A stretch of 64,000 nt of DNA from Isurus oxyrinchus. Its lineage: Eukaryota. The translations under genes were made by a program, and so were the position numbers. Location of the stretch: positions 62,001 through 126,000 of the forward strand of contig JANJGN010000052.1 in the NCBI GenBank assembly GCA_026770705.1, in the 5' to 3' direction. Positions 26,439 to 54,124 of the stretch are shown here, one piece after another. The number at the start of each line of letters is the position of its first letter. Position 1 is the stretch's first letter. Under the pieces are notes generated by a model. The model saw only the letters and a list, made by a program, of their open reading frames with translations. It was not told the DNA's origin and did no database searches.

Positions 26439-26484
26439 ATGGGAGAGGTCGGTCTGATATTGATCTTCATCAGCTTGCTGCAAG
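26439..26484 (+). pseudogene. MAG/Siglec-like gene D, leader exon
   Basis: catttag| acceptor at 26424. ATG GGA GAG...CTG CAA G|gtacaa gives MGEVGLILIFISLLQ, phase 1, ending SLLQ like the A and B leaders. Confidence 0.75.
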
Positions 26485-26816
26485 GTACAAATTCATTACT
26501 GATCGGAACTCAGGGAATTGGATTCTTTCCTGGAGTGAGGAAGTGAACGTTTAATTTTAGAGAACAGGGTTAGTGATCACACAGAGAGTGAGTGATTAGC
26601 GAGTCAGAGAATTTAGCAAAAGAAAAAGCCTCATACGGACTCGAAACACCAACTCTGTTTCTCTCTCCACAGATGCTGTCAGACCGGCTGAGTTTTTCCA
26701 GCATTTTCTGTTTGTGCATCAGAGAGCTTGTTTCAATAGGAATGACAGTGCATTTATATAGCACCTTTAATGCAGTAAAACATCCTTATTGCTTCACAGG
26801 ATTCCCCCACAAGGGG

Positions 26817-27265
26817 TAACATCCCCTCAGCATCCACCCTGTCAAACCCCCCACCATCTCAGAATCTTATATGTTTCAATAAGATCACCTCTCATTCTTC
26901 TAAACTCCAATGGATACAGGGCCCAACCTGCTCAACATTTCCTCATAAGACAAACCCCCTTCATCCCAGGAATCAGCCCAGTGATCCTCCTCTGAGCTGC
27001 CTCCAATGCAGAGTCTATCCCTCCCTAAGTAAGGAGACCAGAACTCTACACACTGCTCCTGATACAATCTCACCAACACCCTGTGCAGCTGTTGCAAGAC
27101 TTCCCTCCTTTTATACTCCATCCCTTTGCAATAAAGGCCAACATTCCTCTTGCCTTCCTCATTCCGTGGTGTTCCTGAATGCTGACTTTCTGTGATTCAT
27201 GTACAAGGACACCCAGATCCCTCTGTACCGCATTCTGTAGACTCTCTCCATTGAAGTAATATTCT
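26817..27265 (-). mobile_element. CR1 LINE 3' fragment
   Basis: MEYKRREVLQQLHRVLVRL...CVEFWSPYL...LSYEEMLSRLG. Confidence 0.85.
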
Positions 27266-27304
27266 GCTTTTTGATGTCCTGTCCCCTCCCTTGTTGCCTT
27301 TCAG

Positions 27305-27594
27305 GAGTGACGTCAGAGGGATGGTCTATGAAGGCGCTGCCTCGGAGGGCCATCAGCAGCTCTTGTGTGGTTATTCCGTGTAGCTTTGACTTTCCTTCCC
27401 ACTCTTACACAGCACTGCACGGAGCTTGGTATAAATATTGGTATAGATGGAAATATACCATCACATACACCAAAGATCCCAATTATGCGATGGCCACATT
27501 CGTGGGACGAGCTAAAATAATCGGCGACTTGGAAGGGAAGAATTGTTCGGTGGGGATTGACAGTCTCAGAGCTGAAGACAGTGACGTGTATTAC
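27305..27594 (+). pseudogene. MAG/Siglec-like gene D, truncated V-set exon
   Basis: cctttcag| acceptor, phase 1. GVTSEGWSMK...SCVVIPCSFDFP...HGAWY...FVGRAKIIGDLEGKNCSV.IDSLRAEDSDVYY then switches to gag sequence and stops at 27604-27606. Confidence 0.82.
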
Positions 27595-29989: not shown

Positions 29990-30207
29990 TGTGTTGCATC
30001 AATATGAACACATATTTGCACAAGGTGAAGGGCGTTGCGGAGGGACTGATAGTTCTCGGTGCCAGACAGTCAATGTCCCAGTGACCTTACTGCTGGTCCC
30101 AGGCCAGTGGGACAGGGAACATCGACACTGCAATATCCAGAAATGGGTGTGATACCACACAGCTACCCACCCGCGGCTGTCCCCTTCAAGTGTTTCAGGT
30201 ATAAGAG
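29990..30207 (+). promoter_or_regulatory. Proximal promoter of the hepcidin-like gene
   Basis: TATAAGAG at 30200-30207, 77 nt before the ATG. C/EBP-type TTGCACAA at 30016-30023, C/EBP-ATF-type TTGCATCA at 29994-30001, CAGAC at ~30063. Confidence 0.55.
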
Positions 30208-30276: not shown

Positions 30277-30369
30277 ATGGGAAGCTCCCGGATGAAATGG
30301 CGACTTGTCTTGTTCACTCTGACTTTGCTGCTCTCCCTGCAGCTGAGTCACTTCTTCTCCTTGTCGAGG
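30277..30369 (+). CDS. HAMP: Hepcidin-like precursor, exon 1 (signal peptide)
   Basis: MGSSRMKWRLVLFTLTLLLSLQLSHFFSLSR with AGG|gtaagc donor, 93 nt, phase 0, downstream of a TATA box. An alternative in-frame ATG is at 30292. Confidence 0.82.
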
Positions 30370-32278: not shown

Positions 32279-32335
32279 GTTGACACTGCTTTAGGTTCTT
32301 CGACGATTGAGAAATCTGTGGATTCCCCGGACACG
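32279..32335 (+). CDS. HAMP: Hepcidin-like precursor, exon 2 (pro-region)
   Basis: Long polypyrimidine ttctttctttttgcag| acceptor and ACG|gtaggt donor, 57 nt, phase 0-0. Encodes VDTALGSSTIEKSVDSPDT. Confidence 0.78.
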
Positions 32336-34639: not shown

Positions 34640-34756
34640 GGCTCCTTGCTGCAGCGCCAGAAGAGAATGGGCAGACAGCAGCTCTGCAGATTCTGCTGTA
34701 ACTGCTGTAATTGGAGAGGACCAAATGAGACTTGTGGTCTCTGCTGTAGATATTAG
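34640..34756 (+). CDS. HAMP: Hepcidin-like precursor, exon 3 (furin site and mature peptide)
   Basis: cttttccag| acceptor, phase 0. GSLLQRQKR|MGRQQLCRFCCNCCNWRGPNETCGLCCRY* has an R-x-K-R site and the C-xx-CC-x-CC-(x)n-C-G-x-CC eight-cysteine pattern. Confidence 0.93.
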   Translation, partial: GSLLQRQKRMGRQQLCRFCCNCCNWRGPNETCGLCCRY

Positions 34757-35084
34757 ACCCTGGCCTCATTCACGCAAGGTCATCCTGCACCATGCCACAG
34801 CCTCTCCCCTCCTTATCTACTGCTTAGCAATCTATTTCACACAGGCCCTGTTCATTAATTCCAACTGAAACTTTACCTGCGTTTTACAGCAGGGAATGAA
34901 GCCATTTGGCCCATCTGCTCCATGCTGGTGTTTCTGCTCCACACGAGTCTCCGCCCATCCCTTCTCCATCTCACCCCATCACCATATCCTTCTATTCATT
35001 TCTGCCTCGTGTGTTTATCCAGCTTCCCCTTAAATACATCGACACTATTCACCTCACGTAACTGTGTTTGTGCCTGTCTTTATG

Positions 35085-35116
<32 letters not shown>

Positions 35117-35599
35117 ACTGTCAATATGTGTGTGTCAATGTGAATGTGTGTGATTGTGTCAGCGTGTGTGTGTGTATGTGTGACTGTCAGTGCGTGTCAA
35201 TGTGAATGTGTGTGATTGTGTCAGCGTGTGTGTGTGTGTGTGTGTGTGTGACTGTGTCAGTGTGTGTCAATGTGAATGAGTGAGTGTGTCAGTGTGTCTG
35301 TGTGGGTGTGTGTGACTGTGTCAGTGTGTGTCAATGTGAATGAGTGAGTGTGTCAGTGTGTCTGTGTGGGTGTGGGTGTGTGAGTGTGCAAGTGAATGTG
35401 TGAGGAATCTTATGACTAAGTCATTTGAATGGATGTTACTGGGGTTAATGATAGTTAAAATTCAGAGAGATGTGAAGCGGGCACCTGATTTTGCTGCTTT
35501 ATGCTCCCGGGCACAGATTGACCCCGACAATGTGTTCATGATTCACCATCATCTTGTCGGGACTTTAATTGTAAAGATTATGATTTGTGAAAAAAAATG

Positions 35600-35605
35600 A
35601 ATAAA
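35600..35605 (+). terminator. Candidate polyadenylation signal for the hepcidin-like gene
   Basis: First AATAAA I found downstream of the stop codon. Confidence 0.35.
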
Positions 35606-37244
35606 CAACTTTTGTCTTCACAAAGTGTCTGGCTTGGTATTTCAGGCTACTTGTCTCTCCCTCACCCTCCCCCCCCACCATGCCCCCCACACCAGGGAAC
35701 AATTGTCCCCCCTTCCTCTGAAGTTCTGGGTAAAGATCAGCTGTATTCAATGCAAGCTGTTCCGACATCGAGAACGTTGTTACAAATATCTCACAAAGGG
35801 CACATGCCATGATAGCCCACTTTCAACAGATTTTACCAGTTGACCAGGTTGAAAACCTTTTCATAAACCACAACGTAGGTGTTCAATTCTTGCTGCTGTT
35901 TGCTTAATGTTCTCATAACTGCTATAACCTCTCTAGTTCCACTACATAACAACACCAACATAAATAAACAGAAGCAGGAGTAGGCCTTTTGGCCTCCCAA
36001 GCCAGCTTGTCCATTCAATTTGAACCTGGCTCCTGCTGAAAGTTATTTAAGTTGAAGCGATAAAGCCATCAGGTGCAGGGATTAAAATGTAAGCAAAGGA
36101 AAAATAATACTTAGACATGAGATTTAAAATCAGTTTCTGTGAAGAATCATACTGAGGCCATTGCACTGGATTCCTTCTTTCCAGAGTGAAGGGTTTAAAA
36201 CTAGGAGTCACATTCAGCAGCTGCGTTGTCTTCTCTAGTTGACTATTTGGAGGTTGCCTATAGATGTGAATCAGCAGGTCAGCAGCTTTGGGGAGTGAGT
36301 GAAGGTCCCTTTTATTTACAGGATCTGCCACAGGGTGTGCAGGAATATTCCTGCTGAATTCTCCATCCTTGCATTCATGAAGGGTTTGAAACTGGAAGTC
36401 ATATTCAGCAGCTGCAATGGCCTCTGTAGCCAACTGTCTGGAGGTTGCCTGTACATGTGGACTCAGCAGGTCAACAGCTTTGTAGGGCGGGGGGGGGTGC
36501 ACGGGTAGTAAAGGTCCCTTTACTTTAAAGGCTCTGCCAGTGCAACACTTGATGATCCTGGGTCAAAATCATGTATCACCCTCCCCAACAGCACTGTGGA
36601 TGTGCCCGATGGAGGTTCCTTGGCTTCGACAAGCAGCCTACCAGCTCTGCTCTCAATTCCTCTTCACACTTGCTTCCTTCCTCCTCTGGTCTTTACTTTG
36701 TTATAGTGTTAGTGTCCGCTCTGCCTTTTTTGTTGCTTTCCCAATTCTTCCCACCAACTCTCTCTGGCTTGATCCTTCTCTGTGCTCATCTCATTGGTTT
36801 GGGTTTCTATCCGTTCATTGACCTGGTGCAATCTGAAACTGGTGCAATCAGGTAGGGGTGGGGGGGTTGGCGCTGGCCGTGGGTGGTGATACACGGCTAC
36901 CTTTTTACCAAAATTCTTTCACGGGATGTGGACAGCGTTTGTTACCTGTTCCTGACTGAGCCCTGGAGAAGGGGGTGCTGAGCTGCCTTTTCGAAGTGCT
37001 GCAGTTCACCTGGTTTGACTGGGCTGTGGCGGGTTTTGATATAACTCAGTGGCTTGCTCGGCCATTTCAGGGGCCAGTTAAGAGTCAACCACATTGCTGT
37101 GGGTCAGGAGTCACACGTAGGCCAGAATGGGTAAGGACGGCAGGTTTCCTTCCCCAAAGGGCATTAGTGACCCAGATGGGTTTTTGCAACAATTGGCCTT
37201 AGTTTCATGGTCACCATTACTGAGACTAGCTTCGCATTCCAGAT

Positions 37245-42209: not shown

Positions 42210-42349
42210 TCAAACAGTCTGTCGACTTCCTTTCACTGTTTGTCTCTCCCAGACACAGACTCCAGCGATAGTGATAACCACAGCCACAAGGAATATCACA
42301 GCTCGTATTCCCAGGATCAGGATCACGTGCAGAATCTCTCCTCCACTGT
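42210..42349 (-). CDS. Siglec-like gene B terminal exon: TM with Arg and short tyrosine-free tail (activating type)
   Basis: tttctttctgtgtgttctctag| acceptor, phase 1. (D)SGGEILHVILILGIRAVIFLVAVVITIAGVCVWERQTVKGSRQTV*, Arg codon 42303-42305. This frame is not in the ORF track. Confidence 0.85.
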
Positions 42350-43463
42350 CTAGAGAACACACAGAAAGAAATCATCACTGACTCTCCGCTTTCAATCTCT
42401 CACTCTGGCTGAACAATCAAGCTTCATATCACTGCAACATTTGCTGTAATATTGACCCATCCACTGGGATTCAATGTGGAATGAATGTTTTCATTGTAAA
42501 CACTCTAAGAGTGGACAATCGGAACTTTCCCCTTAGCGTGGAACATTGGTGAGAATGGATCATTGTGCTGTTGGACTCCCTGTCCAATGTTTCTCTCTAT
42601 TGCTGTGTACAGGATTGTGCTGTAGAAAATTCTGGAAACGTTTAGTGCCGGGTGAAAATCCATCTCGGACGTGTGTGCAAATCGGGCAGGATCGGGATGG
42701 ACTCCCCCACGGACATACACCCCCCGCTTAATAAACAGTTCCAATCTTTACCCAGAGAGAGGGGAGAATATGGAACTCGCTCCCACAGGGAATGGTTGAG
42801 GTGAATAGTAGGAAATTAGGAAGTGAAATTGCTTGAAAAGCTTGGAGATGCAAGGGTTAAGTGTTACCGTGCTACCACTGGTGGGAGAGTGTAACTACAG
42901 CGTGACGTTTACATAGGCAATCCCCATTATGAACATGGACATCATGTGAAAAATGGGCACTGGAAAGCTGAGAACTTGATGTAAGCTTTTCAGCAACAGG
43001 AATTCCCTTCCTAAACCTCTCCACTTCCCTCTTACTCTCAGATACTCAAACAAAATTTCACACAAAATCACGTAAGGAGGAATTGGGACTGGTGACTGGT
43101 CAAAGAGTTAGATTTCAGGAAGGTTCTTAAAGTAGGATAGAGAGTTGGAGAGGCAGAGAGTATCTGTGAGTATCTCTGTGCATCTGAGTGTCTGTAATAG
43201 ACTTTGCAATTTCCATATTCTTCCATAAATATGAAAGGGAACACAAATCCCAGAATCCAGGTCAACTCTCCGGTGCAGCACTGAGGGAGGTCAGGTAATC
43301 CACAGGGCAGTATGTGATAGTGTGTTTGTTTGTGAGTGTGTCTTTGTGTGTGCTCATAGATGTGGGATTGTGTGTCTGCAGGTGTCTATTTAAGGCTGGA
43401 TATTTATGTGTGTTTTTGTAGTGTTTCAATCTGAGAGAGATGTTGAAGTTTATCTTAACTAAC

Positions 43464-43615
43464 GTTCCACAGTGATGGTTATGAACCCCTCCACTGCTCC
43501 ATGTTCATTCTCTGAGCACACTGATAGTCTCCAGTGTCCCTGGATGTAACGTGAGGAATCACCAACCACAGCTCATTGTTGGAACTTGTTCTGTTCATTG
43601 TGATATTCAGATGTC
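43464..43615 (-). pseudogene. Broken C2-set exon remnant in gene B
   Basis: Only the 3' half (HLNITMNRTSSNNELWLVIPHVTSRDTGDYQC) matches the module C exons. The 5' half and acceptor are missing and there is a 1-nt deletion after the Cys codon. Confidence 0.8.
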
Positions 43616-43938
43616 AGGACCGGACTCAACAAGACAGATTGCAGGTTTACCAACAGAAAGTGAAAAACAATTTATATTTAAAGGGAAGAGAGTGCTGGTT
43701 AATCAGCAAGTGGTCTCTGATTGGAGGAGGTGTTGCCATGGAAAATAATGTGTGTGAGATGTAAAGTTTAGACAGCTTGTCCCTTCATTCAGCAACAATC
43801 AAATAAAGATCAGTTAACTTCTATCGACTGTGAAGCACTTTGAGAGGTCTGAGAATGTGGATACTGAGAACAGGCTGCACTGTCAGAGGGTCAGCGCTGA
43901 GGGAGCGCTGATGTAGAATGAAAGGTGTCTGTACTTAC

Positions 43939-44235
43939 CTTGCACAGTTAGTACGAGGGTCCGCTCCGATGCAACAGATGGATATCTCACTCTGCAGCTG
44001 AGAGTGTGTCTGTGGTGTTTGAGTGATGGGATCAGGGTCAGAACAGAAGTATAGGTCAGAGTGACACCATGCTGAGTTACAGTGTTTGAGACTGATCCAC
44101 GTACGTCAGTGGGAGTGTCCCAGGTTAAGACAGGTGCTGCTGTTCCATTGCACGTTGTGTTGAAGGTGCAGCTTACATCCACAGGCTTTCCTGCAATAAT
44201 TTCAGCAGGGAATATCGTGGGTTTATCTGTGAAAT
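43939..44235 (-). CDS. Gene B, domain-2 C2-set Ig exon
   Basis: 297 nt, phase 1-1, canonical splice sites; differs from the gene A exon at about 4 residues. Confidence 0.9.
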
Positions 44236-44963
44236 CTAACAGACGGAGAATGGATCCTTTTAGAGAAATATAACGTGAAGCATCAGTTCAAATAGAAATC
44301 ACAATCCCACAAGAAAAAGCACTTTTACAAGGATGATATCAGATCTGAGAGGTTACAATGATTAGGAGAGAATTTCCTGCTTTGAGACTTTGGTGTTTCT
44401 GTCTCTCAGCTTAATACACGTTCACTCCGAGACACTTGAACTGATAATAGTGGGTGAGGGTGGTGGAGCAGACCAGAGTTTGGAGTGCACTAACCCATCA
44501 GTCCCTCAGCGATCTGGGCCATTTTTTACTTTGCAATTTGTGGGAGCTTGCTGTGTGCAAATTGGTTGCTGTGTTTCCCACATTACAATAGTAACTAAAA
44601 TTCAGGAATCAGCTCATTGGCTGTGAAGTGATTTGGTCCGTGCTGAGGTGGTGAAAAGTGCTACAGAATTGTGAATCTTTCTTCTGTCGCTATGTCAGAC
44701 TTCGAGACAGGATTAGAGAGATCGATGGGAGTGGATAACCTGATAACATTGATGGACACAGTCAATACATTTAATCATTGATATTAAAGTGAGTATTAGA
44801 GGTTGCTTTAGGAGTGAACTGGAAGCTATCACCAGGTTATTGAGAATCAGACAGTGTGTTATAATAAGCTGTGTTTTGTGTTAATATGTAAACGTCACAG
44901 TTTGTGTTATTTCCCATTGAGTGTTGAATGTGAATTGTTGAGTAATTATAACACAGCACTTAC

Positions 44964-45329
44964 CAGAAACGTGAACCTGGGTTACAGGGTAATAGTTATG
45001 GCTCGGACCATTGTCAAATTCTATTCTGAAAAAATAAGGTCCTGCATCTTCCCATGTGATGTTGTTTATAATCAGGGAACAGTCGCCATCTTTCAGGTCT
45101 CCAGACAGCCGGGTCCGATGGTGGAACCGTGGTAACTCGTGACTGTGATCCTTGGAGTGAAAGGCTATAGACGATGTTCTCCATTCCTCATTATTAAGCC
45201 AGACTCCACGTCGCGGTTGGTTTTCCAGACATGATGGATAACTATAATGACATGGAATCTGTACACAGGAACCTTCCTGCACTGTCACCTCTCGTGGAGT
45301 GTCACCTTTCCACTCTTGTGAGGGTTCAG
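44964..45329 (-). CDS. Gene B, V-set exon V4 (next to C2)
   Basis: 366 nt, phase 1-1, ag/gt intact. AEPSQEW...SCVQIPC...WLNNEEWRTSSIAF...PYFFRIEFDNGPSHNYY; Arg present. Confidence 0.88.
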
Positions 45330-47267
45330 CTGGGGAGAGAAATCTCAATATTTAACTCTGAATGGTTTGTGGATCCACTGAACCCGATATTTACAGATGA
45401 GGCTGAATTGGGGGGATGGTCAATACTGAGGAGAATGGCAATAAATTATATTGTCAGGAAGAATAGAAAAACAGGATATAATTTAAATGGTGACAGGCTG
45501 CAGTATGCAGTACAGAGGGATCTGGGTGTCCTGGTACATGAATCACAGAAAGTCAGCATTCAGGAACAACACGGAATGAGGAAGGCAAGTGGAATGTTGG
45601 CCTTTATTGCAAAGGGATGGAGTATAAAAGGAGGGAAGTCTTGCAACAGCTACACAGGGCGTTAGTGAGATTGTAACAGGATCATTGTGTACAGGCAGTT
45701 CAGAGAAGCTTCACTGGGCTGATTCCTGGGATTAAAGGGTTTGTCCTGTGAGGAAATGTTGAGCAGGTTGGGCCTGTATCCATTGGAGTTTAGAAGAATG
45801 AGGGGTGACCTTATTGAAACATATCCGATTCCGAGGGGGCTTGACAGGGTGGATGCTGGGAGGATGTTTCCCCCTCGTGGGGGAATCTAGAACCAGGGAG
45901 CACAGTTTCAGAATGAGGGCTCTCCCATTTAAGACTGAGATGAGGAGGAATTTCCTCTCTCAGAGGGGCGCTAGCCTGTGGAATTCTCTTCCCCAGAGAG
46001 CAGTGGAGGCTGGGCCATTGAATAGACTCAAGGCTGAGTGAGGCAGGTTTTTGATCGACAAGAGAGTCAAGGGTTTGGGGGACAGGCAGGAAAATGGAGT
46101 TAAGGCCACAACCAGATCAGTGAGAGCAGGCTGGAGGGGCCGAATGGCCTGCTCCTGTCCCTATTTCTTATGTTCCTACATTCTTACCTTCTTAAAATAT
46201 TAAAGCTGCAGAATAAACATGCAAGTGACTGACCCGCTCGACCCACCTTCCATCTGGGGGTCCCATGGGGAGGACCCTTCCTGAGCCAGATCCACCAGCC
46301 AACATGGTCTGGATCCGAGCACAGGAGACACGGGGGGGGAGTGACTAACAGGCTCCTTGTGATAGGCCCCGTCTGTCCAATGGCTGGCTTTCAGCTGCCA
46401 AGGCCAGAGTTGTCCTTGCTAAAACCGGCTCAGGACAGGCCAGGACCCCTGTGCAGACCCCCTCCAGCGCTGCAGCCTCTGTACAAACCCCTCATGCGCT
46501 TGTGGAGAGACACAAACAAGGCTGCTCATTACCGAGGAGAATCCCCTCTACAGACTAAGGTGCTGACTCATCACCCTAAACTCGGCAAATGAGGAGGCTC
46601 TCGCTCGGTATCGGGGCTTGGCATTCGCTCAATAAAAATAATCAAATGACATTTTGGTCAGAAATCTAAGGAGGTTGTACATTCCCTCAAAAATAAGACT
46701 CGATCTGGGGTCGAGAGTCAAAGGGCAACAACTTATATTTTCACAACAACTTTAACATGACAAATCACCTCAAGGTGCTACACAGGAGCGTCATAAAACA
46801 AAGTATGTCACCCAGACACATGTGGAGATATTAGCGACAGCTGACCAGAAGAGGTCGGTGTTATGGAGAGACAGAGAGAAAGAGACAGAGAGAGAGAGAG
46901 AGAGAGGGAGAGGAAGAGGGAGAGGGAGAGGTTTAGGGTGGGAAGTCTAGGGTGGTGAAAGGCGCTGTAGAAATGTAAATCTTTCTTCTGTCGATATGTC
47001 AGACTTCAAGACAGGATTTGAGAGATTGATGGGAGTGGATAAACTGATAACATTGATAGACACAGTCAACACATTTAATCATTGATATTAAAGTGAGTAT
47101 TAGACATTGCTTTAGGACTGAACTGGAAGCTATCACCAGGTTATTGAGAATCAGACAGTGTGTTATAATAAACTGTGTTTTGTGTTAATATGTAAACGTC
47201 ACAGTTTGTGTTAATTCCCATTGAGTGTTGAATGTGAATTGTTGAGTAATTATAACACAGCACTTAC

Positions 47268-47636
47268 CAGAAACGTGAAGCTGGGTTACAGGGTAATAGT
47301 TATGGCTCGGACCATTGTCAATTTCTATTCTGAAAAAATAAGGTCCTGCATCTTCCCGTCTGATGTTGTTTATAATCAGGGAACAGTCGCCATCTTTCAG
47401 GTCTCCAGACAGCCGGGTCCGATGGCGGAACCGTGGTAACTCGTGACTGTGATCCTTGGAGTGAAAGGCAATGGGAGCCCAGGGAATCTGTTTCTCATTA
47501 TTAAACCAGAGTCCACCTCGCGGTTGGTTTTCCAGACACGATGGATAACTGTAATGACATGGAATCTGTACACACGAACCTTCCTGAGCTGTCACCTCTC
47601 GTGGAGTGTCACCTTTCCACTCTTGTGACAGTCCAA
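47268..47636 (-). CDS. Gene B, V-set exon V3
   Basis: 369 nt, phase 1-1. WFNNEKQIPWAPIAF...PYFFRIEIDNGPSHNYY; Arg present. Confidence 0.85.
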
Positions 47637-49573
47637 CTGGGGAGAGAAATCTCAATATTTATCTCTGGATGGTTTGTGGATCCACTAGACTCAAAATTTA
47701 CAGATGAGGCTGAATTGGGGGGATGGTCAATACTGAGGAGAATGGCAACAAATTATTTTGGCAGGAAGAATAGAAAAACAGGATATTATTTAAATGGAGA
47801 CAGGCTGCAGAATGCAGTACAGAGGGATCTGGGTGTCCTTGTACATGAATCACAGAAAGTCAGCATTCAGGAACACCACGGAATGAGGAAGGCAAGTGGA
47901 ATGTTGGCCTTTATTGCAAAGGGATGGAGTATAAAAGGAGGGAAGTCTTGCAACAGCTGCACAGGGCGTTAGTGAGATTGTAACAGGATCATTGTGTACA
48001 GGCAGTTCAGAGAAGCTTCACTGGGCTGATTCCTGGGATTAAAGGGTTTGTCCTGTGAGGAAATGTTGAGCAGGTTGGGCCTGTATCCATTGGAGTTTAG
48101 AAGAATGAGGGGTGACCTTATTGAAACATATCCTATTCCGAGGGGGCTTGACAGGGTGGATGCTGGGAGGATGTTTCCCCCTCGTGGGGGAATCTAGAAC
48201 CAGGGAGCACAGTTTCAGAATGAGGGCTCTCCCATTTAAGACTGAGATGAGGAGGAATTTCCTCTCTCAGAGGGGCGCTAGCCTGTGGAATTCTCTTCCC
48301 CAGAGAGCAGTGGAGGCTGGGCCATTGAATAGACTCAAGGCTGAGTGAGGCAGGTTTTTGATCGACAAGAGAGTCAAGGGTTTGGGGGACAGGCAGGAAA
48401 ATGGAGTTAAGGCCACAACCAGATCAGTGAGAGCAGGCTGGAGGGGCCGAATGGCCTGCTCCTGTCCCTATTTCTTATGTTCCTACATTCTTACCTTCTT
48501 AAAATATTAAAGCTGCAGAAAAAACATGCAAGTGACTGACCCGCTCGACCCACCTTCCATCTGGGGGTCCCATGGGGAGGACCCTTCCTGAGCCAGATCC
48601 ACCAGCTAACATGGTCTGGATCCGAGCACAGGAGACACGGGGGGGAGTGACTAACAGGCTCCTTGTGACAGGCCCCGTCTGTCCAATGGCTGGCTTTCAG
48701 CTGCCAAGGCCAGAGTTGTCCTTGCTAAAACCGGCTCAGGACAGGCCAGGACCCCTGTGCAGACCCCCTCCAGCGCTGCAGCCTCTGTACAAACCCCTCA
48801 TGCGCTTGTGGAGAGACACAAACAAGGCTGCTCATTACCGAGGAGAATCCCCTTTACGGACTAAGGGGCTGACTCATCACCCTAAACTCAGCAAATGAGG
48901 AGGCTCTCGCTCGGTATCGGGGCTTGGCATTCGCTCAATAAAAATAATCAAATGACATTTTGGTCAGAAATCTAAGGAGGTTGTACATTCCCTCAAAAAT
49001 AAGACTCGATCTGGGGTCGAGAGTCAAAGGGCAACAACTTATATTTTCACAACAACTTTAACATGACAAATCACCTCAAGGTGCTACACAGGAGCGTCAT
49101 AAAACAAAGTATGTCACCCAGACACATGTGGAGATATTAGCGACAGCTGACCAGAAGAGGTCGGTGTTATGGAGAGACAGAGAGAAAGAGACAGAGAGAG
49201 AGAGAGAGAGAGGGAGAGGAAGAGGGAGAGGGAGAGGTTTAGGGTGGGAAGTCTAGGGTGGTGAAAGGCGCTGTAGAAATGTAAATCTTTCTTCTGTCGA
49301 TATGTCAGACTTCAAGACAGGATTTGAGAGATTGATGGGAGTGGATAACCTGATAACATTGATAGACACAGTCAACACATTTAATCATTGATATTAAAGT
49401 GAGTATTAGACATTGCTTTAGGACTGAACTGGAAGCTATCACCAGGTTATTGAGAATCAGACAGTGTGTTATAATAAACTGTGTTTTGTGTTAATATGTA
49501 AACGTCACAGTTTGTGTTAATTCCCATTGAGTGTTGAATGTGAATTGTTGAGTAATTATAACACAGCACTTAC

Positions 49574-49942
49574 CAGAAACGTGAAGCTGGGTTACAGGGT
49601 AATAGTTATGGCTCGGACCATTGTCAAATTCTATTCTGAAAAAATAAGGTCCTGCATCTTCCCGTCTGATGTTGTTTATAATCAGGGAACAGTCGCCATC
49701 TTTCAGGTCTCCAGACAGCCGGGTCCGATGGCGGAACCGTGGTAACTCGTGACTGTGATCCTTGGAGTGAAAGGCAATGGGAGCCCAGGGAATCTGTTTC
49801 TCATTATTAAACCAGAGTCCACCTCGCGGTTGGTTTTCCAGACACGATGGATAACTGTAATGACATGGAATCTGTACACACGAACCTTCCTGAGCTGTCA
49901 CCTCTCGTGGAGTGTCACCTTTCCACTCTTGTGACAGTCCAA
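49574..49942 (-). CDS. Gene B, V-set exon V2
   Basis: 369 nt, phase 1-1; protein identical to V3 except IEFD versus IEID. Confidence 0.85.
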
Positions 49943-52084
49943 CTGGGGAGAGAAATCTCAATATTTATCTCTGGATGGTTTGTGGATCCACTAGACTCAA
50001 AATTTACAGATGAGGCTGAATTGGGGAGATGGTCAATACTGAGGAGAATGGCAACAAATTATTTTGGCAGGAAGAATAGAAAAACAGGATATTATTTAAA
50101 TGGAGACAGGCTGCAGAATGCAGTACAGAGGGATCTGGGTGTCCTTGTACATGAATCACAGAAAGTCAGCATTCAGGAACACCACGGAATGAGGAAGGCA
50201 AGTGGAATGTTGGCCTTTATTGCAAAGGGATGGAGTATAAAAGGAGGGAAGTCTTGCAACAGCTGCACAGGGCGTTAGTGAGATTGTAACAGGATCATTG
50301 TGTACAGGCAGTTCAGAGAAGCTTCACTGGGCTGATTCCTGGGATTAAAGGGTTTGTCCTGTGAGGAAATGTTGAGCAGGTTGGGCCTGTATCCATTGGA
50401 GTTTAGAAGAATGAGGGGTGACCTTATTGAAACATATCCAATTCCGAGGGGGCTTGACAGGGTGGATGCTGGGAGGATGTTTCCCCCTCGTGGGGGAATC
50501 TAGAACCAGGGAGCACAGTTTCGGAATGAGGACTCTCCCATTTAAGACTGAGATGAGGAGGAATTTCCTCTCTCAGAGGGGCGCTAGCCTGTGGAATTCT
50601 CTTCCCCAGAGAGCAGTGGAGGCTGGGCCATTGAATAGACTCAAGGCTGAGTGAGGCAGGTTTTTGATCGACAAGGGAGTCAAGGGTTTGGGGGACAGGC
50701 AGGAAAATGGAGTTAAGGCCACAACCAGATCAGCGAGGGCAGGCTGCAGGGGCCGAATGGCCTGCTCCTGTCCCTATTTCTTATGTTCCTACATTCTTAC
50801 CTTCTTAAAATATTAAAGCTGCAGAATAAACATGCAAGTGACTGACCCGCTTGACCCACCTTCCATCTGGGGGTCCCATGGGGAGGACCCTTCCTGAGCC
50901 AGATCCACCAGCCAACATGGTCTGGATCCGAGCACAGGAGACACGGGGGGGAGTGACTAACAGGCTCCATGTGACAGGCCCTGTCTGTCCAATGGCTGGC
51001 TTTCAGCTGCCAAGGCCAGAGTGGTCCTTGCTAAAACCAGCTCAGGACAGGCCAGGACCCCTGTGCAGACCCCCTCCAGCGCTGCAGCCTCTGTACAAAT
51101 CCCTCATGCGCTTGTGGAGAGACACAAACAAGGCTGCACATTACCGAGGAGAATCCCCTCTACGGACTAAGGGGCTGACTCATCACCTTAAACTCAGCAA
51201 ATGAGGAGGCTCTCGCTCGGTATCGGGGCTTGGCATTCGCTCAATAAAAATAATCAAATTACATTTTGGTCAGAAATCTAAGGAGGTTGTACATTCCCTC
51301 AAAAATAAGACTCGAGCTGGGGTCGCGGGTCAAAGGGCAACAACTTATATTTACACAACAACTTTAACATGACAAATCACCCCAAGGTGCTACACAGGAG
51401 CGTCATAAAACAAAGTATGTCACCCAGACACATGTGGAGATATTAGCGACAGCTGACCAGAAGAGGTCGGTGTTATGGAGAAACTTAAAAGAGGGATGAA
51501 ATGGTTAGTGAGAGAGAGAGAGTGAGTGTGAGGGATGGAGAGGGCTTAAGGGAGGGTATTACGGAGCTCGGTCCCCAGGCAGCTGAAGGCATGGCCACCG
51601 ATGTTAGAGTGTTGAGATCGGGGGATGGTCAAGAGGCTGGAATTGGAGGAGCGCAGAGACCTCTGAAGGTTGGTGGGTCTGGAGGAGGTTACAGAGATAG
51701 GGAGGGTTGTAGGGGCTGGAGGAGGTTACAGAGATAGGGAGGGGTGTAGTGATTGGAGGAGTTATAGTGATAGGGAGGTTTGTAGGGGCTGGAAAAGTTA
51801 AGAGAGATTGGGAGAGTGTAGGGTCTGGAGGAGTTTGCAGAGGTCGGGAGGGTTGTAGTGACTGGGGCAGGTTACAGGGGCAGGGAAAGTTGTCGGGACT
51901 GGAGCAGGCTACAGAGATAGGGAAGCTTTTAGGGGCAGGAGGAAGTTACAGAAATAGGGAGATTTGTTGTGGCTGGAGGAGGTTGCAGAGATTGGTAGGT
52001 TTGTTGGGCAGGATGAATTTACAGATATAGGGAAGCGGTAGAGGCTTGAAGAGGTTACAGAGAATGGGATGTTTGTAGGTACTG

Positions 52085-53100
52085 GAGGAGGACGAGGAGA
52101 TTACAGGGATAGTGAGGAAACAAAGATGAAAATTTGGACGTTGACATTTTGCTTGACCAGGAGCCAGTCTCGGTCATCGAGCAGAGCGGGTGATAAGGGA
52201 ATGGGACTTGGTGTGAGTAAGGACGTGGTCAGCAGTTTTGGATGGCCTCAAGTTTATGGAGTGTAGAGCGTGTGTTGGAACAGTCGAGACTGGAGGTAAT
52301 GAAGGTGTGGATGAGGGTTTCAGCAGCAGATGAGCTGAGACAGGGTGACGTCGTGCGATGTTACGGAGGTGGAAATAGACGGTGTTAGTGAGGGCGCAGA
52401 TAGGAGGCCGGAAGCTCATCTCAGGATCAAATGGGACAACAAAGCTGTGAACAGATTGGCTTCAATCTCAGAGAGCTGCCAGGGAGAGGAATGGAGTTGG
52501 TAGCGAGGGAACAGAGTTTGGAGCGGGGAATGAAGACAATGGCTTCAGTCTTTCCAATATTTAATTGGAGGGAATTTCTGCCCATCCAGTACTGGATGTC
52601 GGATAAGCAGCCTGATAATTTAGCAGCAGTGGAGGAGTCGAGAGAGGTGGTGGTGAGGTAGAGCTGGGGATCCTCAGTGGACAGGTGAAAACTAACACTG
52701 TTCAGATGATGCTGCAAAGCCATTGCAAGTGATTCTCTGGCTACGATGAGATGGATAAGAATGGAGCCAGGGGAGAGCAGTCCCACCCAGCTGGACGACA
52801 GTGGAGAGGTGTTGGAGGAGGATGGTGTGGTCGAGCGTGTCAAAGGCTGCAGACAGATCGAGAAGGACGAGGAGGGAAAGTTGACCTTTGTCACAGTCAC
52901 ACAGGATGCCATTTGTGACCTTGATAAGAGCTGTTTCAGCACAGTGGCTGGGGTGGGAACCTGATTGGAGGGATTCAAACATGGAGTTCCGGGAAAGATT
53001 TGAACAGATTCGGGAGATGGAAACAGGTTGCAGGACTTTGGAGGGGAAAGAGAGGCTGGAGTTGGGACGGGGGTTTACACGGACAGTGTGAGGGGTGGAA
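52085..53100 (-). mobile_element. L2-type LINE RT fragment
   Basis: QSG..PSHCAETALIKVTN.IL....LLVLLDLSAAFDTLDH.ILLQHL, LQLNIGKTEAIVF, YFHLRNIAR. Confidence 0.85.
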
Positions 53101-53346
53101 GGTGTAGTGGGGAGGAGATACTTCACTCAGGGGGGAGGTGTCATCACCCCTCAGCTCGGTTTATGTTACAGCTATGATGTGGATTCAATCACACACAATA
53201 AGCTTATGGATCTGGGAGCAGAAATAGACAAATCATTAAAAATAGTGGCGCTGTTTAACACGGCCAAAAAACAAGCAAATCAAACACTATTATTTCCCAC
53301 TGAGTGTTGGATGTGAATTGTTGAGTAATTATATCACAGCACTTAC

Positions 53347-53721
53347 CAGAAACGTGAAGCTGGGTTTCAGGACGGTCATTGTATCTATTCCTGTTGTCAA
53401 ATTCTAGGCTGAATAAATAATATCCTGCATCTTCCCGTCTGATGTTGTTTATAATCAGGTAACAGTCGCCATCTTTCAGGTTTCCAGACAGCCGGGTCCG
53501 ATGGTGGAACTGTGGTAACTCGCGATTATGATCCTTGGAGTGAAAGGCTATAGACCGTTCATTCCATTTTTCCCAATTCCTTCTCATATACCAGATTCCG
53601 ACTGGTGATCTCGCTACTAAATATGATGGATAACTGTAATTACATGGAATCTGTACACACGAACCTTCCTGCGCTGTCACCTCTCCTGGAGTGTCACCTT
53701 TCCACACTTGTGATAGTCCAA
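53347..53721 (-). CDS. Gene B, V-set exon V1 (next to leader; essential Arg replaced by Ser)
   Basis: 375 nt, phase 1-1, open, ag/gt intact. WYMRRNWEKWNERSIAF...GYYLFSLEFDNRNRYNDRP; Ser codon 53408-53410. Confidence 0.85.
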
Positions 53722-54124
53722 CTAGGGAGAGAAATATCAATATTTAACTCTGAATGTTTTCTCAATCCACTAGACTCAATATCCACCCCCTCCATCACTG
53801 GGGCACACAGGCTGCAGTCTGGATAATCCACAGGTCACACAATGAATGCCCCAAGGTTTCACAACAGATTGAAGAGAATTCCGGACACAGGAGTGGACAA
53901 GTTCATTCTAAATTGGCTCATGACCCTCAGGTACCTATTTAGTGAAGTCAGTCTGCCACCCAACACAGTGTCTACAAGACACACTAATTGAAGTGAGTTC
54001 ACTGCTGATTTACAACGTAGGACAATGGATTAGGAGCCTTCAGAATTCCCCCATTATCACCATCATGAATCATGAATTGGCCTAGCTGTCCTAGATCCTC
54101 AGTGTCTAAGGCAGTGGTTCCTAT

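Follow-up and report, generated by a model that had tools for sequence, protein, structure and literature searches.

An amplified, fast-diversifying hepcidin subfamily in a Siglec-like gene cluster of the shark Isurus oxyrinchus and its possible role in innate defence

Two residues near the N-terminus of hepcidin, His3 and Phe4, have specific roles in ferroportin regulation. What, then, might be the function of a hepcidin from which the tip of the iron hormone is missing? The question is raised by a gene in a stretch of 64,000 nucleotides from the genome of the shark Isurus oxyrinchus (contig JANJGN010000052.1, positions 62,001 to 126,000; the whole stretch is called the window below). An initial annotation, made from the letters alone, had taken positions 34667-34753 of the forward strand for an atypical mature hepcidin, an antimicrobial-type paralogue that is possibly glycosylated. 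Translation does give the proposed peptide of 29 residues there, followed by TAG. The answer that we favour, with some reserve, is that the window gene, itself intact, belongs to a hepcidin subfamily that was amplified recently and is diversifying fast, and that its product would be a secreted innate-defence peptide and not an iron hormone.

The gene is intact. Its three coding exons (30277-30369, 32279-32335 and 34640-34756, forward strand) are all in phase 0 with GT/AG sites, and they encode a preprohepcidin of 88 residues consisting of a hydrophobic signal core, a pro-region, an RQKR motif and the mature peptide. The coding part of exon 1 (30277..30369) gives 31 residues with a signal-peptide core, as judged by hydropathy only, and its GT donor is intact in this copy. 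Exon 2 (32279..32335) contributes 19 residues of the pro-region, and splice joints are seen at both of its ends. Behind the AG acceptor at 34640, exon 3 completes the pro-region (34640..34666), the last codons of which form the RQKR convertase-type site (34655-34666) where the precursor is predicted to be cleaved. The mature peptide with its stop codon (34667..34756) has eight cysteines and no His3. Its loop lies at 34709-34732 and ends in an N-E-T sequon (34724..34732; mature residues 20-22) whose Asn is residue 79 of 88 and whose Thr adjoins Cys6. The 3' UTR (34757..35624) has AATAAA at 35600; poly(A) added after 35624 appears as a loose end in run X2.

Exon 3 reaches 31.2 bits against the Pfam Hepcidin profile PF06446 (cut-off 27, E 2.7e-7); the mature peptide on its own scores 24.1 bits, which is below the cut-off. 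The cysteine spacing of the peptide, 2,0,1,0,8,2,0, fits C-x2-CC-x-CC-xn-C-x2-CC, and the eight-cysteine pattern has a single match across six frames of the 64-kb window, namely this hepcidin. The net charge of the peptide is +3. An AlphaFold2 model is helical and of low confidence (pLDDT 67, pTM 0.35), coming from a four-sequence alignment only, and the leads in the ESM Atlas were all under 0.9. A homologue search with exon 3 gave no match, and a protein profile search returned five elasmobranch proteins. None of the proteins returned by database searches is of the derived type described below.

How many such genes does this shark possess? We searched the 4.98-Gb assembly with the Pfam Hepcidin profile, scoring 150 of 151 candidates, and obtained 97 matches at E<=10, 78 of them above the cut-off. 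The best 89 of the 97 were examined, the remaining eight being the weakest (E>=0.72). They comprise 85 copies of the window type, which we call derived, two copies that bear His3, both on contig C34, and two matches on C126 and C988 that were rejected as hepcidin genes, since no exon aligned and their frames contain stops. The derived copies are spread over 13 contigs, with 28 on C52 (4.2 Mb) and 19 on C71, where the median gaps between hepcidin copies are 157 kb and 105 kb, respectively. Searches at the DNA level returned 91 candidate matches to exon 3 and 130 to exon 1; the 40 scored for each are 98-100% identical. That the gene is a paralogue, as had been proposed, is thus strongly supported: the window copy is one of 85 derived copies and, with two His3-bearing genes found in the search for a canonical paralogue, it is not the sole hepcidin in the genome.

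About half of the family appears to be in working order. No visible defect is found in 43 of the 85 derived copies, which encode 21 different mature peptides, and 17 of the 28 copies on C52 are intact; the 82 in-frame third exons encode 37 different mature peptides. The other 42 copies look damaged, in classes that overlap: TT in place of the GT donor of exon 1 (32 copies), exon 1 or 2 missing within the fetched stretch (11), a frameshift in exon 3 (3), a changed acceptor (2) and a lost cysteine (1). The shared GT-to-TT donor change, at the position of window 30370 and with an in-frame stop just after, occurs on 12 contigs though it is probably gene-disabling.

It is quite conceivable, though we doubt it, that the assembly inflates the count through the presence of two haplotypes or mis-joined repeats, and that the haploid count is closer to 30-45 copies than to 85. 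Every contig except C52 (12 of 13) is a piece of 0.2-2.5 Mb, and an LSR-family exon occurs with identical score on two small contigs (G000:C452:60361 and G000:C1620:70134), for which reason some haplotype redundancy is likely. Five pairs of copies differ by less than 0.3%. However, these pairs make up only 10 of 83 copies and copies lie a median of 1.7% from their nearest neighbour, so the set is not accounted for by simple doubling of haplotypes; besides, one contig alone carries 28 copies, 17 of them intact, and several alleles are present in an independent run. We weigh this matter separately from the readings of function discussed below, for it bears on how many copies there are and not on whether the family exists. 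A figure of 28 to 85 derived copies is safe.

Comparison with other cartilaginous fish indicates which features of the peptide are unusual. The hepcidins of Cetorhinus maximus (XP_078389754.1), Scyliorhinus canicula (XP_038670190.1) and Mobula hypostoma (XP_062912710.1) have the same 88-residue layout. As in the window family, the mature peptide of most chondrichthyan hepcidins starts with Met and its eight-residue loop ends in Thr. The Cetorhinus precursor is identical to that of the window gene at 51 of 59 prepro residues and at only 13 of 29 mature ones; for Scyliorhinus, 34 of 59 prepro residues match. In Mobula, an N-R-T sequon occupies the position of N-E-T. These hepcidins differ from the derived copies in retaining His3 and a basic loop. 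Among the protein records returned, other chondrichthyans have at most two hepcidin genes per species, and these records show no large amplification. In S. canicula (XP_038669797.1) and in Heptranchias perlo (XP_067831447.1), a His3-bearing gene is accompanied by a second hepcidin that has lost His3. The second hepcidins are of different sequence, and because each groups with the ordinary gene of its own lineage, they would be separate events.

The eight residues between Cys5 and Cys6, N-E-T included, as against four in the human chain in PDB, had been regarded as atypical. With respect to human and bony fish this description holds. Within cartilaginous fish it does not, since a Thr-ended loop of eight is found in 8 of 11 chondrichthyan database hepcidins, and a loop of eight accompanies His3 in both C34 copies; such a loop is the chondrichthyan norm. 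The absence of the iron-hormone tip (of DTHF, QSHL or MSHL type), also flagged at the outset, is borne out across the family: His3 occurs in none of the 78 derived copies with a 29-residue peptide, residues 3-5 being Arg-Gln-Gln or close variants, and is present in 9 of the 11 database hepcidins and in both C34 copies. Phe9 and the cysteine frame are invariant or almost so among derived copies. Their peptides have net charges of 0 to +4, mostly +2; that of the C34 peptide is +5. As read from these sequences, the derived traits are a new N-terminus, an altered lysine-rich loop and the sequon.

The sequon is present in all 82 in-frame derived copies and absent from both C34 copies. One Lys-to-Asn change (AAG to AAT) would suffice to produce it, ahead of a Thr that is ancestral at the loop end (8 of 8 eight-loop relatives). 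Its conservation is not beyond chance, because 9 of the 21 non-cysteine mature positions are invariant (P about 0.17 for Asn and Thr both being so). According to passages in PMC3613688 and PMC4137057, sequons near the C-terminus or adjacent to cysteine need STT3B/MagT1 and may be modified incompletely, with NXT outperforming NXS at such sites. The N-glycosylation of Asn20 that the sequon predicts falls, in our estimate of occupancy, somewhat short of an even chance. The convertase site among the 82 in-frame copies is RQKR in 60, RQNR in 18, HQNR in 3 and CQKR in 1, a variation that may alter processing of the precursor.

How could the family have become so large? In a Pfam scan of 135 of the 185 window frames, V-set/Ig_CD22 and C2-set exons turned up to either side of the hepcidin gene. 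On the reverse strand, in convergent orientation, lies a Siglec-like gene whose transmembrane exon (42218..42350), the partner of hepcidin in the amplified unit, has an Arg in the helix; in other receptors such an Arg marks pairing with an activating adaptor. The Siglec/CD22-like Ig exons (43886..53743; Pfam V-set and Ig_CD22) include a C2-set exon (43886-44287) and four V-set exons (44884-45351, 47188-47658, 49494-49964 and 53258-53743), all on the reverse strand. The best PDB matches of the window Ig exons are Siglec-5, Siglec-8, CD33 and MAG. The YFFR Arg is kept in the first three V exons and not in the fourth, and the Arg of most neighbouring V exons aligns with that of Siglec-5. Just upstream of the hepcidin gene (26439-27470, forward strand) there are a signal exon and a Siglec-like V exon; the latter is truncated, its reading frame ending at the start of a retroelement-like stretch. 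The reverse-strand exons belong to a Siglec/CD22-like cluster of several megabases (window 42218-53743, reverse strand, and contigs C52, C71, C121, C150, C189 and others) with hundreds of V exons, some of them in 2.3-kb tandem repeats, and with a near-invariant Arg-bearing transmembrane exon.

The derived hepcidin copies were co-amplified with this Siglec-like gene. For the transmembrane exon there are 237 candidates in the genome, and all 150 that were scored are 98-100% identical; for one V exon there are 1068, of which the 150 scored are all at least 87% identical and lie on the same or similar small contigs. At least 56 of the 85 hepcidin copies have, among the 150 listed matches, a transmembrane exon 5.5-8.3 kb downstream on the opposite strand (tail-to-tail), while the control placements (upstream; same strand) gave 0 and 0.

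The C34 pair is also surrounded by CD22-like V exons and, in addition, by a GPCR with best matches to FFAR1, 3 and 2 (148 of 383 frames scanned). The halves of this FFAR-like gene (G000:C34, about 15.265 Mb) are in different frames, so it is either a pseudogene or an assembly error. Since these neighbours fit the human gene order, which we take to be HAMP-MAG-CD22-FFAR, C34 is probably the ancestral hepcidin locus and the Siglec link is probably old. Only the Siglec/FFAR side of the human synteny is supported, because no USF-like motif was found in 130 kb around the C34 genes and no LSR-family exons on C34.

Have the copies diverged at random? All three exons have their full length in 68 copies, 40 of which are intact, and these allow an estimate. 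In the mature peptide pN is 0.047 and pS 0.009, in the signal and pro-region 0.002 and 0.003, and the result is unchanged for intact copies alone. Across 2034 non-coding sites the diversity is 0.014. Within mature codons, variants found in at least three copies occupy 12 of 58 first and second positions and 1 of 29 third positions; among non-coding sites the count is 82 of 2034. For this excess Fisher's test gives p 5e-6, with sites that are not independent. Diversity of the mature part (0.040) exceeds that of all 195 overlapping 87-base non-coding windows by a narrow margin (maximum 0.036). A one-ratio codon model puts omega of the mature part at 8.8-9.2; compared with omega=1, 2dlnL is about 18 and 33 for two trees, one of which was built including the mature sequence itself. 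With 42 of the 85 copies damaged and a prepro omega of 0.97 on very few changes, the data give no evidence of purifying selection within the cluster. Four amino acids segregate at one mature site and three at several. At the level of these sequences, the data show diversifying selection on mature codons, with statistics that gene conversion and shared ancestry inflate. Between derived copies and the C34 pair, non-coding DNA differs by 8-9% and only 13 of 29 mature residues are shared (the direct comparison of window and C34 DNA is dominated by repeats). Here mature pN is 0.34 and pS 0.31 (17.5 sites, small counts), and the excess is not clearly nonsynonymous because pS is as high as pN.

The family is transcribed. 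Contigs of runs X1, X2 and X4, which represent one public sample whose RNA nature is a guess (none is recorded as RNA), contain both GT..AG joints at the positions of the window gene, so that the hepcidin family is spliced and polyadenylated in that sample. Several genomic peptide alleles are present within one run. The G at 30290 is private to the window copy (1 of 68) and was not found in X1, X2 or X4, where all transcript contigs covering the site read A. Hence transcription is supported for the family, and not specifically for the window allele. Under a second organism label, a contig of X10 is of the derived type and one of X5 of the C34 type, with the differing positions partly displayed. 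Contigs of X14 and X8 do not reach the exons and so are neutral.

All 80 cluster copies that have exon 1 share a TATA box (window 30200..30205). Some 220 bases upstream of the ATG, 69 of these copies have GGCGCC, and 11, the window copy among them (30058..30063, 219 bases upstream), have the one-base variant GGTGCC. GGCGCC is the motif of human BMP-response elements (passages in PMC3879105), and the motif matches make these sites candidate BMP-response elements. A new promoter in the derived copies was ruled out: the segment, GGCGCC included, is also found in the C34 genes, where an insertion in each (G000:C34:15204996-15208302 and 15235854-15238481) has pushed it 2.6-3.3 kb upstream. No STAT consensus was found within 1 kb of the ATG in the 4 genes scanned.

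What these peptides might bind is a further question. The genome has three ferroportin-family loci (G000:C14:56.75-56.78 Mb, G000:C14:74.67-74.73 Mb and G000:C3:138.65-138.68 Mb). At the C14:74.7 Mb locus, the residue corresponding to human Cys326 is Gly and the one corresponding to His507 (matched by eye) is Arg. Changes at these two positions weaken hepcidin binding by human ferroportin, and with both of them altered the product of this locus may be hepcidin-insensitive. A search of the open-access literature gave no paper on ferroportin or slc40a2 in cartilaginous fish. Passages of one report (10.1101/2020.03.16.993006) state that the first nine residues of hepcidin reproduce its effect on ferroportin; the derived tip would therefore be expected to bind ferroportin poorly.

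The following course of events can be suggested. An ancestral hepcidin gene beside Siglec-like and FFAR-like genes would have been duplicated, and one duplicate would have exchanged its SHLSI tip, losing His3, and its lysine-rich loop. Segmental duplications of the Siglec-like cluster would then have multiplied this copy. Its precursor would be secreted, cleaved after RQKR and folded on four disulfides into a peptide that no longer plugs ferroportin well and acts instead on microbes or a microbial target, whose own change would drive the substitutions; the C34 pair would retain iron control. A HAMP2-like defence role of this kind is suggested by the copy number, by the diversifying selection on mature codons and by the immune-receptor surroundings, and analogy with teleosts, where type 1 and type 2 hepcidins divide the labour (passages in PMC8502971), makes an antimicrobial-type function plausible. 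Several observations count against it: the cationic charge is lower than that of the C34 peptide, 42 copies are damaged, Phe9 and the BMP-type motif are kept, the private allele of the window copy is absent from transcripts covering its site, and a croaker HAMP2 peptide raised macrophage iron (passages in PMC6240063).

This last effect on iron would also suit copies that still act on ferroportin or one of its paralogues, their amplification serving to withhold iron by dosage. The (nearly) invariant Phe9 and cysteine frame would agree with that, as would the existence of three ferroportin-family loci and the GGCGCC, which 69 of 80 derived copies have in proximal position and which is displaced in the C34 pair. 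We nevertheless consider it unlikely: the His3 tip has gone from all 78 peptides, an omega near 9 is not what a conserved host target predicts, and His3-bearing copies exist, the C34 type being transcribed. Alternatively, most copies could be passengers, a hepcidin carried along beside a Siglec-like gene by expansion of the cluster and drifting under relaxed constraint. The tail-to-tail linkage with its empty controls speaks for this, and so do receptor exons that outnumber the hepcidin copies, Siglec-like neighbours at the C34 copies too and the many damaged genes; it probably accounts for the multiplication of the copies, if not for their divergence. Drift, however, would not focus change on the first two positions of mature codons or leave three or four amino acids segregating at single sites, and several alleles are transcribed, so as an account of the whole we find it rather improbable.

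There is a small chance that the peptides serve as signalling ligands, or as opsonin-like tags, for some host receptor that is not ferroportin. Among the candidates would be the Siglec-like receptors amplified with them, which would bind them through a sialylated N-glycan. The ubiquity of the sequon and the low net charge are consistent with this, and so are the Siglec-5-aligned Arg in most neighbouring V exons, the Arg of the transmembrane exon and the ability of STT3B to glycosylate NXT sites near the C-terminus (passages in PMC3613688). Yet co-amplification needs no functional tie, given that the hepcidin-Siglec linkage is common to the C34 locus; the invariance of the sequon lies within chance; and, being C-terminal and adjoining a disulfide cysteine, it falls in both skipping-prone classes (passages in PMC3613688 and PMC4137057). 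Only very slight is the probability that we give to a paired ligand-receptor module, in which an N-glycosylated, sialylated hepcidin would bind microbes by its hypervariable face, its invariant glycan would be read by the adjoining activating Siglec-like receptor, and the pair would have been multiplied dozens of times.

If the defence reading is correct, is the family related to the teleost HAMP2? With human hepcidin-25 (HAMP1) the window family shares the eight-cysteine frame, the prepro layout, the convertase site, the GGCGCC-type promoter motif and Siglec/FFAR neighbours; it differs in lacking His3, Phe4/Leu4 and Pro5/Ser5, in a loop of eight instead of four, and in its many copies. HAMP2 genes (sea bass, yellow croaker, tilapia, gilthead seabream) are likewise multi-copy derived paralogues beside a conserved iron-type gene, with the QSHLS tip lost and a variable N-terminus under positive selection, and the CRFCCNCC core of the window family matches sea bass hamp2 and PDB 1s6w. 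Unlike HAMP2, the window family is dispersed through a Siglec-like cluster, bears the sequon and has 28-85 copies. In a tree of 23 sequences, none of them a HAMP2 precursor, the derived copies group together (100/100) and, with the C34 pair and Cetorhinus, fall inside the shark hepcidins, a nesting of moderate support (87/92, 83/78). This position and the 8-9% non-coding distance from C34 argue against descent within the acanthopterygian clade of teleost HAMP2, which passages in PMC6240063 describe as reported only from Percomorphaceae/Ovalentaria. The likeness is probably convergent, and the most likely interpretation is an independent, shark-specific HAMP2-like defence family.

Its novelty lies in the size of, and the selection on, this hepcidin family; the features flagged earlier are partly ordinary. 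Hepcidin families in print, as given in passages of the respective papers, have 6 genes in yellow croaker (PMC6240063), 12 in Nile tilapia (PMC8774982) and 15 in gilthead seabream (PMC12255565). The 28 copies on one contig, which are the floor of our count, are about twice the largest of these. Hepcidin has been detected in nurse shark plasma (passages in PMC9207270), and we found no account of a shark hepcidin expansion in the titles, abstract openings and selected passages of the open-access literature. The copies also point to a multi-megabase cluster of Siglec-like receptors in this shark. The 21 intact variants together with the C34 peptide are a natural panel for separating ferroportin binding from antimicrobial action. 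If the proposal is true, cartilaginous fish would provide an independent case in which hepcidin has split, one branch being an iron hormone and the other a diversified family for defence, and such a case in a shark would bear on whether the split recurs and on which of the two roles is ancestral.
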